This document shows positions 26,855-50,414 of a stretch of 64,000 nucleotides of DNA, one piece after another (the first letter of the stretch is position 1; each line of letters begins with the position of its first letter). Origin of the DNA: an uncultured Clostridia bacterium (GTDB taxonomy: Bacteria; Bacillota; Clostridia; Christensenellales; UBA1242). The notes beneath the pieces were generated by a model. It ran no database searches. It was not told the DNA's origin and saw nothing but the letters and a program-made list of their open reading frames with translations. The translations under genes and the position numbers were made by a program. The DNA lies in NCBI GenBank assembly GCA_930979925.1, contig CAKNIB010000008.1:217-64216 (forward strand), given 5' to 3'.

Positions 26855-26882
26855 ATATTACCCCCCCCGAATTTTTTGTCAA
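26855..26882 (-). promoter_or_regulatory. promoter TTGACA-16-TAATAT with a G8 tract in the spacer
   Basis: Minus strand reads TTGACA AAAAATTCGGGGGGGG TAATAT. The C8 run occupies 26861-26868 on the plus strand. It lies ~80 nt upstream of ATG 26773. Confidence 0.55.
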
Positions 26883-27016
26883 GCAAAATTGCGTCATTTT
26901 CGAAAAATGTTTTAAAAACTTAAATTGTAAAAAAAATAAAAACAATTTAATAAGAAAAATGAAGCTTACCTATGCAAGCAGTATCAGCGTTTGCGTTTTG
27001 TTGTCTTCTTAAATAT

Positions 27017-27134
27017 GAGGCTTGCCTATTGTTAACTTTTAATGAAAAGTTAACAATAGAATGTTGTGACAGTCGAAGATTGGCACAACATAAAAGATAC
27101 CGAAGGGTTTTCCTTCGGTCTCTTTGCAAGCCTC
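27017..27134. repeat. 118-nt conserved structured element (closing stem plus three hairpins), copy A
   Basis: GAGGCTTGC...GCAAGCCTC encloses hairpins at 27026-27059, 27062-27090 and 27095-27123. About 83% identical to 48537-48654, with compensatory changes in the stems. Confidence 0.6.
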
Positions 27135-27138
27135 GTGG

Positions 27139-46785: not shown

Positions 46786-46890
46786 AAATAAAATAAATAA
46801 ATGAATAAATAAAAAATTTGTTTTGTTAAAATTTAAAAATATCAAAAATAAAAAACAAAAAATATATTTAATAAAAACAATTATAAATAT

Positions 46891-46926
46891 AAAAAATCTA
46901 ATGCCAATTTAATGGCATTAGATTTT
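46891..46926. terminator. bidirectional intrinsic terminator
   Basis: AAAAA-ATCTAATGCCA-loop-TGGCATTAGAT-TTTT, between convergent genes. Confidence 0.7.
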
Positions 46927-46931
46927 AATTT

Positions 46932-47897
46932 TTATGTTCTAGACATTCCGTAAACGCCAGAAGAACCTTTCAGCCATTCGGCAGCAGTTGATGGATCTGC
47001 AAGAGTTTCTTCATCAATATCTCCATGTGCAAATGTCCAGCCTGTTGGAATCTCATAGTAAGCTAAAGCTAAACTATTGCAATTAGTGAAGGCACCAGAA
47101 CCGATGGCTGTCACACTCGATGGAATTGTTATTGAGGTTAAACTGCTACAACCACTGAAAGCATATCCTCCAATACTTGTCACACTATCTGGGATTGTAA
47201 TTAATGTTAAACTACTACATCCGCCGAATGCATTATTACCAATGGCTGTCACTGTAGCAGTTCGTCCATTATACTGAACTGTTTCAGGAATGATTACAAC
47301 TTCTGCATCTGGACTACAACTTGCAACACTTACACTTTGTCCACTTCCACTATTAAGTGAATAGGTTAATGTACCTAAAACGGTTTCATTGATATTTATT
47401 GTTATCATTGATAAATCTATATTTTCAAGATTTGGGTTTGATACAGTTAACTCTAATGTTGTTGTAATAGGTGTTTCTGAGGTTATAGTTGTTACAGTCT
47501 CTGTATTTGCTGAAATTAGGTTAGTTATATTTATCTCTATACCAGTTATACTACTTAGTCCACTATAATCTACATTAACTAAATAAGTGTTAGTTGTAGT
47601 ATTTATTATATCAAAATACAATGCAAATGAGCCTCGGTTATTATTATGATCGCCTACATTAAAGTTAAAGTCTCCGTTGATGTAGCCTGGAGTAAAGTTT
47701 GAGATTATGACTGGGTCCTCTCCTGCCTCTTGCATTCTAACCTCTTTTACCCATAGGCTTTTATCATTTACATTAAAGTTTACACTACCATTCATGGTTA
47801 TTGTTTGACTACTTGCGGCTAGCACTCCAGCTACTACCAGTCCAAGGACTAGAATAAAAGCACTTATTAATGACAGCAGTTTTAATTTGATTGACAT
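46932..47897 (-). CDS. secreted BspA-type leucine-rich-repeat (LRR_5) protein, paralog B
   Basis: The ORF opens at 47909, but GGAGG precedes ATG 47897 (MSIKLKL...). The N-terminal ~170 aa are ~70% identical to paralog A. The C-terminus has [59 protein letters not shown]. Confidence 0.85.
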
Positions 47898-48035
47898 TTT
47901 TACCTCCATTTTCTTTAGTATTTGATAAATTATTTAAATTATTACCTAGTTTACAATCTTATTTTATATTTAAAAATAATTGTCACTTGGGTGACGATTT
48001 AGCAAATTTCAAAGAATTTAAAATTTGCTAATTTC

Positions 48036-48060
48036 GCGCCTTCGGCGCGGGCTAAAAAAT
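48036..48060 (-). promoter_or_regulatory. conserved GC hairpin block in the leader of LRR gene B
   Basis: (C)GCGCC-TTC-GGCGC(G) plus GGCTAAAAAAT, matching 26796-26820. Confidence 0.5.
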
Positions 48061-48395
48061 ATTTTACATTTCGCGTTATGCTATAACACCCCTTGCGTCT
48101 AACCCCATAAAATCTCACGATTTTATGGGCACCCGACCGGGTCCTTATTACGAAGAAAATTCCAGAGGAATTTTCGAGGAGGTCGGAGGGGGAGTTCTAC
48201 CCCACAAATTATAAAATTTGTGGGGAGCCCCGGGGTGGGGAACCGAAAATATTTTTTATCACGAAGTGTAAAAAATATGTGTTTTAGCGGTTAGACGCGC
48301 ATAAGCGCGTCGTGCCCGCGTTTCATTTTTCTTAAATTAAAAAATTTAAGAAAAATGATAAAACTTGGGTTCCACCCTAAAAGCGATAGCTTATT
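48061..48395. other. ~335-nt GC-rich, hairpin-dense insertion between promoter and GC hairpin of LRR gene B (structured RNA or MITE-like element)
   Basis: Perfect hairpins lie at 48105-48128, 48155-48175, 48200-48225, 48294-48311 and 48323-48358. There is a 10-nt long-range complement between 48095-48104 and 48289-48298. Absent from the equivalent position of copy A, where only 34 nt (26821-26854) occupy this position. Confidence 0.5.
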
Positions 48396-48420
48396 TTACC
48401 CCCCCCGAATTTTTTGTCAA
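48393..48420 (-). promoter_or_regulatory. promoter TTGACA-16-TAAAAT with a G8 tract in the spacer (twin of 26855-26882)
   Basis: Minus strand reads TTGACA AAAAATTCGGGGGGGG TAAAAT. The C8 run occupies 48399-48406 on the plus strand. Confidence 0.5.
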
Positions 48421-48536
48421 GCGATTTTACGCTATTTTTGAAAATTGTTGAAAATTTTTGCATGAATTCTTAATTTCAAAATCTTTTATACGACCGCATG
48501 AAGCGAGCGTGATGGATTTGGTGTCACGCCAAGCAT

Positions 48537-48654
48537 GAGGCTTGCCTATTGTCAGCTTTTATAAAAAAGTTGACAATAGAATGTTGTGACAACCAAAGGT
48601 TATTACAACATAAAAGAGACCGAAGAATTTTTCTTCGGTCTCTTTGCAAGCCTC
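48537..48654. repeat. 118-nt conserved structured element, copy B
   Basis: Same length and architecture as 27017-27134. Lies 138 nt downstream of the groEL stop. Confidence 0.6.
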
Positions 48655-48791
48655 GTGACTGAGGTGTTAAAATAAAACTCTTGTCTCGTGGCTGATATTA
48701 TACTAAACTGATGATATACTAAAATGTAGTTTATGTTATATTAATAATAATGATTGATAAGTATGACAACTATTAATAATCAACTCTATTA

Positions 48792-50414
<1,623 letters not shown>

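Follow-up and report, generated by a model that had tools for sequence, protein, structure and literature searches.

A G8 tract in the promoter spacer of a BspA-type LRR gene from a gut Clostridia bacterium: one of 23 genomic copies, a structured leader, and a putative slippage-based switch

Most known cases of phase-variable surface repertoires come from pathogens (Neisseria, Treponema, Mycoplasma, and Campylobacter), and in gut commensals the documented phase variation acts mainly via invertible promoters. The closest described promoters to the one reported here are those of T. pallidum tp0126 and N. meningitidis porA, in which a poly-G tract lies between the -35 and -10 hexamers, the optimum spacer is 17 nt, and natural populations show tracts 7 to 11 long (PMC7864442). 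In M. hyorhinis, a poly-A tract is found in the promoter of every vlp gene, and the genes are switched ON and OFF independently and in combination, according to the passage of PMC10502178 that cites Citti and Wise 1995. Candidatus Mycoplasma girerdii carries at least 28 BspA-like copies, with simple-repeat length variants among metagenome reads (PMC5476646).

The locus described here, locus B, lies in a window of 64,000 nt, the whole stretch that was analyzed, on contig C8 of a 1.13-Mb assembly (36% G+C, 97% complete) of an uncultured chicken-gut Clostridia bacterium. As at tp0126 and porA, a surface or outer-membrane protein gene has a sigma-70-type promoter with a G homopolymer in its spacer, and the tract sets the spacer length. 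Unlike them, the module occurs 23 times in the 1.1-Mb genome of a gut commensal of Gram-positive lineage, its usual spacer is 16 nt, its leader can hold a large structured element, and it is known from sequence. The resemblance to vlp, as that system is outlined in the cited passage, lies in a paralogous surface family in a small genome, with a promoter homopolymer of its own for each gene, a conserved N-terminus, and a differing C-terminal part; however, vlp has poly-A and a single cluster of 3-7 genes encoding lipoproteins, whereas here the tract is poly-G, about 20 genes are spread over many contigs, the products are BspA-type LRR proteins with a signal anchor, and switching is predicted. 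With Ca. M. girerdii the organism shares a large BspA-like family in a reduced, host-associated genome, but the repeats there are mainly dinucleotides causing intragenic frameshifts, whereas a homopolymer in a promoter spacer would act on transcription. This kind of promoter switch is already known from porA, tp0126, and vlp; what is notable is the scale and the join to an undescribed structured leader. We consider it probable that site B is one unit of a large contingency-gene family with a slippage-based promoter switch.

Promoter, leader, and gene at locus B

The features referred to below are as follows, in window coordinates.

46932-47897, minus strand: gene B, 321 aa, with an N-terminal signal anchor, a conserved domain of ~180 aa, and BspA-type LRRs (PF13306, E = 2.9e-20)
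47895-47907, minus strand: ribosome-binding site GGAGG (47903-47907) and start codon ATG (47895-47897); the protein start MSIKLKLL fits the family N-terminus
47982-48030, minus strand: two further leader hairpins (48000-48030 and 47982-47995), also present in the C5_69158, C13, C17, and C21 leaders
48035-48059, minus strand: leader module TTTTTTAGCC with a GC hairpin (GCGCC-GAA-GGCGC), from alignment and sequence
48104-48129, minus strand: extra perfect hairpin with a GTGA loop, from sequence and fold
48130-48378, minus strand: U element (nhmmer E = 9e-8; covariance model R1 74.4 bits, E = 3e-16)
48393-48398, minus strand: -10 hexamer TAAAAT (family variants TAAAAT, TACAAT, and TAATAT)
48399-48414, minus strand: 16-nt spacer, AAAAATTC plus G8, the G8 tract being 48399-48406
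48415-48420, minus strand: -35 hexamer TTGACA, unchanged in all 23 genomic copies
48421-48459, minus strand: conserved A/T-rich stretch upstream of the -35 hexamer, alignable in 23/23 copies (aaaatgacgcaattttgc and variants)
48507-48533, minus strand: truncated 5' U fragment (cttggcgtgacaccaaatccatcacgc), with the same start as the full-length U at C2, C9, and C11
48534-48657, minus strand: block B1, ~120 nt, the groEL terminator hairpin plus palindromes within a closing stem; 12 genomic copies
26855-26882, minus strand: promoter copy A (G8, -10 hexamer TAATAT), 81 nt upstream of gene A

The minus strand at 48393-48420 is the 28-mer TTGACAAAAAATTCGGGGGGGGTAAAAT, made up of TTGACA, the 16-nt spacer AAAAATTCGGGGGGGG, and TAAAAT, and so reads directly as the initial annotation of this DNA had given it. 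The site agrees with the sigma-70 consensus at 11 of 12 positions and is the best in 46800-48900, with none comparable nearer gene B; the homopolymer falls between the two hexamers, as it does in promoters of the porA, tp0126, and vlp type. On sequence grounds it is very likely a housekeeping sigma-A/sigma-70-type promoter with a spacer ending in G8, a statement we make with greater confidence than the one about switching, and its transcription start is predicted near 48386. When the window was searched with the 28-mer, allowing up to three mismatches, two matches were found, site B and copy A, against 0.00 expected from 100 shuffles. The two were originally described as identical in -35 hexamer, spacer, and -10 position; the -35 hexamer and the spacer including G8 are indeed the same, but a single base differs within the -10 hexamer (TAATAT at copy A). 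The A/T-rich stretch at 48421-48459 is a candidate UP-element-like or operator-like sequence, and its counterparts in other species terminate in ...caatttgcTTGACA.

PF13306 (BspA-type LRR) was found in both gene A and gene B, at E = 3e-20. Both proteins have a hydrophobic anchor at the N-terminus followed by the conserved domain of ~180 aa; they are 56% identical overall and ~80% identical over the first 180 aa, the LRR parts having diverged. The hydrophobic N-terminal signal anchor, together with PF13306, suggests that the gene B product is located at the surface. An in-frame ATG upstream of the start codon, at 47909, overlaps the gene B ribosome-binding site.

From the predicted start near 48386 to ATG 47897, the leader measures about 490 nt, in line with the distance and ATG already proposed, and the ribosome-binding site at 47903-47907 fits that ATG. 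It had also been called structured, which is borne out by a folding energy of -167 kcal/mol vs. -105 kcal/mol in shuffles (z = -10.9). In most family leaders the TTTTTTAGCC plus GC-hairpin module lies ~35-50 nt after the -10 hexamer; its stem sequence varies but pairing is kept.

Metatranscriptome contigs from run X24 cover gene B at 46816-47903 with a depth of 11-21, and a further contig covers the leader at 48115-48427 with a CDS-like depth of 14.8, which supports transcription of leader B at the level of the coding sequence. These contigs leave 47904-48114 uncovered, a stretch of repeat modules of the sort that break k-mer contigs, and they provide no coverage of 48433-48900. The leader contig reaches 41 nt upstream of the predicted start, across the promoter, so upstream read-through or DNA carry-over may contribute; however, a covered leader and coding sequence next to a bare 48433-48900 argues against uniform DNA carry-over. 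RNA over the leader, which the initial annotation had proposed looking for, was thus detected, on a contig that crosses the promoter as well. At the 3' end of the adjacent groEL (48788-48900), X24 had no contig at 95% identity or above and X25 showed the reverse, a contrast that may reflect strain differences or real differences in expression.

Poly-G promoters across the genome, genus, and order

A regular-expression scan of the 1.13-Mb genome located 23 poly-G promoters. Their tracts are G7 (1), G8 (17), G9 (4), and G10 (1) and their spacers 15 nt (3), 16 nt (13), 17 nt (5), and 18 nt (2); the conserved core of the 23 aligned promoters is ~95 nt long, from roughly -60 to roughly +35. On base composition alone, about 11 G/C runs of at least seven would be expected in this genome, randomly scattered, vs. 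the 25 found, 23 of which are in poly-G promoters. The remaining two are a decayed copy (C5:29001) and a C7 run in the spacer of another, unrelated promoter (C2:106272; TTGACAAATCCACCCCCCCGTTTTATAAT).

Twenty family genes, which share the N-terminus made up of signal anchor, conserved domain, and BspA-type LRR, were found by tblastn with the gene B N-terminus, and a poly-G promoter lies ahead of 18 of them. The search for further islands that had been suggested for the rest of the genome was therefore productive, and the family described at the outset as a small set of surface proteins is indeed a paralogous BspA-type LRR family, but with about 20 genes it is not small. At one of the two remaining family genes (C7:39380-39480), the promoter G tract is interrupted (TTGACAAATCGGTAGCTATGGGAGTAAAAT), and this promoter may be a locked variant. 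Five of the 23 promoters have no family gene after them; two precede decayed family members, and the others precede a methionyl-tRNA synthetase gene, which also has its own promoter, an Asn-rich ORF, and a contig end. At C16:10950-11330, the order is a poly-G promoter, a decayed family gene (a 32-codon stub), and then a UvrD/PcrA-type helicase gene, and at C13:900-1640 a poly-G promoter precedes a decayed LRR coding sequence without its N-terminus.

Other species were searched with the pattern TTGACA-N4-11-G7+-N0-5-TANNNT, using the same pattern reversed as the control. Within the genus, 32 of 61 species genomes gave matches, and elsewhere in the order 12 of 85 genera did, the reversed control giving 0 in both cases; several species of the genus hold larger sets (about 30, 17, 21, and 13 matches). 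The A/T half of the spacer varies by species (AAAAATGC, AAAAGGGC, TTTTGC, and others), but the G tract persists and so does the overall spacing; selection on the tract is thereby separable from simple copying. Most sampled family genes in two other MAGs have a poly-G promoter ahead of them, and in one species the family genes stand behind ordinary promoters. TTGACA-N-G8-10-TAnnnT sites in other genera of the order numbered 9, 5, 4, 4, and 3 (G193, G217, G161, G159, and G194, respectively).

Similarity between the loci is not confined to the promoter. Block B1 directly follows the stop codon of the upstream gene, groEL at B and mreB at A, and contains a terminator-like hairpin after groEL (48645-48613); its sequence at 48534-48657 is 85% identical over ~125 nt to 27010-27135 beside copy A. 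Loci A and B also have in common ~40 nt upstream of the -35 hexamer, the TTTTTTAGCC plus GC-hairpin module (93% identical over 30 nt), and the first 180 codons, so the initial statement that their flanks have diverged beyond recognition does not hold. Neither does the view that the island is no part of a longer recent duplicate: C2:20847-21274 matches locus B over 428 nt at 96.7% identity, with the first 153 leader nt 100% identical. Within this region, C2:20947-21235 carries the B promoter and leader; at the hairpin module these are joined to a ribosome-binding site and 5' coding sequence of the A type, 98.6% identical to those of A. The order over C2:20780-21500 (L082) is a dead promoter with only its -35 hexamer, a U element with terminator, a G8 promoter with B-type leader, and the A-type ribosome-binding site and 5' coding sequence.

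The loci are, to judge by these alignments, mosaics of common modules parted by unrelated or inserted DNA. The C2 recombinant, together with an X38 allele that joins B upstream sequence to a C15-type leader (see below), indicates that modules have evidently been swapped between loci, and such swapping explains both the range of leader lengths (81-499 nt) and a part of the promoter identity. The near-identity of B and C2 shows that copying between paralogs acts alongside selection in keeping the copies alike. The proposal that selection acts on promoter and tract as a unit is supported by the 23 copies and by a tract kept across species while the A/T part of the spacer changes; the conservation, however, takes the form of a mosaic and not of a 30-nt island, and some of the identity stems from recent copying.

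The U element

U itself is ~180 nt long and multi-copy; the copy at B, at ~250 nt, makes up about half of the leader. A single-sequence fold of leader B yields the U consensus helices. The outer helix pairs 48367-48378 with 48233-48244 and encloses a three-way junction (ACGCGGGCACG ... TAACCGCTA), and the consensus has conserved unpaired junction bases (ACGCGGGCACG ... CUAACCGCUA). Two perfect hairpins (48323-48359 and 48200-48225) are inserted in the B copy, and its 3' part comprises a C-rich linker (48178-48194), a hairpin (48151-48176), and a 3' hairpin (48130-48144) without a T-run. A G-quadruplex on the strand opposite the C-rich linker seems unlikely from sequence, which has just three G runs.

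The covariance model gave 23 U hits in this genome; other loci (G000) include C11:20253-20428, C2:21277-21454, C9:30235-30407, C17:8519-8912, C25:8027-8455, and C10:10240-10848. Of 121 species of the genus, 65 had U; of 84 other genera, none did. Over 38 distinct copies from about 25 species, 92.2% of cells were paired vs. 71.1% in shuffled alignments, none of 500 reaching the observed value, and slid controls gave 37-58%. Double compensatory changes were seen at 37 of 47 pairs, in an alignment that had been fitted to the model. The wobble counts compared for strand assignment were of similar size, 42 for G-U vs. 30 for A-C. Leader B and five U-bearing loci gave no Rfam 15 match at E < 0.1, all weak ones being far below the gathering score, and the window gave nothing credible. 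Reading the leader B motif AGGGTGGAACC as a T-box was rejected, as the B region had no RF00230 match at E <= 10. The only T-box matches, weak ones of 41.8 and 32.1 bits, are in another species, on the minus strand of L114 (G110:C42) at 1464-1645 and 2026-2136, with the canonical AGGUGGUACC antiterminator, upstream of an operon ending in TyrRS; two low-scoring U matches lie between them on the opposite strand.

The U copy at B begins 14 nt after the -10 hexamer, and the corresponding distance in three other species is 11-15 nt. Other copies, solitary or tandem, occupy the stretch from the upstream block to the promoter and finish with a hairpin followed by T4-7, whereas the leader copies, a small sample, are without a T-run. 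This fits a picture in which upstream U copies would be terminators or insulators and leader copies permissive; without its T-run, the copy in leader B probably lets transcription through. U-like elements also lie 150-400 nt upstream of fusA (EF-G), sometimes two in tandem, in four other species of the genus (L099, L103, L110, and L112), where RNase J, prfB, and a sigma-factor gene are likewise preceded by them. Since it also precedes housekeeping genes such as fusA, U is not confined to the surface-protein family.

Pneumococcal BOX, enterobacterial REP/BIME, and neisserial Correia elements are multi-copy, lineage-restricted, modular intergenic repeats with stable folds, at times co-transcribed with their neighbors and with terminator-like or promoter-affecting ends. 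U resembles them in being multi-copy, lineage-restricted, modular, and intergenic, but differs in its multi-helix junction enclosed by a long-range helix, its conserved unpaired bases, and the compensatory changes at 37 of 47 pairs. No transposase, terminal inverted repeats, or target duplications were identified with U. U may thus be either a mobile repeat with structure or a new RNA motif, and its features seem closer to those of a functional RNA than to those of a plain palindromic repeat.

Tract length in natural populations and readings of the locus

Tract lengths were read from assembled contigs (Logan) in a set of 47 public runs and are thus consensus sequences. On contigs that span the tract and include B-specific sequence, locus B had G8 in 12 runs (X1, X2, X3, X4, X8, X12, X17, X19, X30, X34, X35, and X37). 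A 1026-nt contig from run X6, with B-specific flanks on both sides and spanning 47850-48662, had G7; compared with locus B over 813 nt, its sole indel was the absence of one G at 48399. Run X7 carries an identical contig and is probably not independent of X6. In run X38, a contig matched 48380-48508 without substitutions, including an identical 110-nt upstream flank, except for one extra G (i.e., G9); downstream of 48380 it passes into the leader type of paralog C15, and it may represent an allele of B or else a paralog whose upstream flank resembles that of B. The tract-length variation foreseen for this promoter is therefore present as G7, G8, and G9 in different natural populations, the G7 and G9 variants belonging to diverged strains. 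G8 is the state of 17 of the 23 paralogs and, at locus B, of 12 of the 14 populations, so the tract may be fairly stable. Both mutS and mutL are intact in the genome, ruling out an absence of mismatch repair as the source of tract instability.

Under the slippage-based switch, slipped-strand mispairing at replication would add or remove a G, and the resulting shifts of the spacer among 15, 16, 17, and 18 nt would alter promoter strength. With a separate tract for every gene, switching would occur gene by gene, so that paralogs could be dialed up or down independently and heritably, giving cells with differing surface-protein repertoires. At locus B the transcript would run from near 48386 through the ~490-nt leader into gene B, its first ~250 nt being U and the rest hairpin modules of other family leaders; leader length would then mirror the shuffling of modules among paralogs. 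Tract-dependent expression, switching within lineages, and any role of U are, like the transcription start, inferences from these patterns.

The prevalence of G8 just mentioned, the presence of mismatch repair genes, and the strong signs of copying between paralogs could also be read as marks of a fixed promoter feature, a DNA-shape element or a contact for a regulator or sigma factor, homogenized by gene conversion and with neutral length changes; the conserved upstream motif could then serve as an operator for a common regulator. We regard this as distinctly unlikely, since a protein contact site would neither require a homopolymer nor accept the range of 7 to 13 seen across species, the sole indel in the 813-nt strain comparison falls exactly in the tract, and other long G/C runs are absent from the genome, which suggests that runs are costly, mutable, and kept where mutability is useful. 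It is more doubtful again that promoter B chiefly makes U as a small RNA or 5' product, with gene B expressed by read-through or from a weaker, nearer promoter. U does begin 11-15 nt after the -10 hexamer in four species, most U copies end in a hairpin and T-run like independent RNA genes, and X24 covers 48115-48427 and the coding sequence while omitting 47904-48114. However, the 3' hairpin of U in leader B is followed by no T-run, the gap in the RNA contigs coincides with repeat modules that break them, the best candidate promoter between U and gene B matches at only 9 of 12 positions, and 15 of the 18 family genes with poly-G promoters have no sense-orientation U in their leaders.

That island B is a non-functional relic of cassette duplication, with gene B silent or read from groEL, would be in keeping with the solo or relic promoters ahead of methionyl-tRNA synthetase, UvrD/PcrA-type helicase, and truncated LRR genes and with the RNA contig that crosses the promoter. 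It was nevertheless judged very improbable: both hexamers and their spacing are intact, as is the conserved gene B, a terminator-like hairpin (48613-48645) follows groEL, and X24 covers the leader and coding sequence with no RNA between groEL and the promoter. The slippage-based switch thus remains the reading that we favor.

An extension of that switch, put forward tentatively and in our estimation unlikely, is that poly-G promoter and U form a two-layer control that is general across the order, a heritable, stochastic DNA dial feeding a conserved structured RNA at the 5' end of the transcript. The RNA would be a new cis-regulatory leader, responsive to a ligand, a protein, or an sRNA, or else a small RNA coordinating, for the whole family, the choice of surface proteins produced, and its working parts would be the three-way junction, the conserved junction bases, the C-rich linker, and an optional terminator. 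Poly-G promoters heading surface-protein families would then be an undescribed strategy of small-genome gut Clostridia.

This reduced-genome, uncultured gut Clostridia lineage appears to give nearly all of its long G/C runs to the promoter spacers of one surface-protein family. If switching is true, this would be among the largest promoter-repeat contingency families described, and a natural system in which to follow commensal surface variation in metagenomic time series. U is a directly testable candidate for a new structured RNA motif. There is also a practical warning, in that poly-G loci break short-read assemblies: at loci A and C17, the promoter was split into unitigs of 30-80 nt common to the paralogs, and no contig crossing the tract had unique flanks. 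A second homopolymer length polymorphism was observed at locus B; in several populations (X2, X3, and the RNA run X24), U helix P5 in the leader has one extra A in its A/T run at window position 48269.
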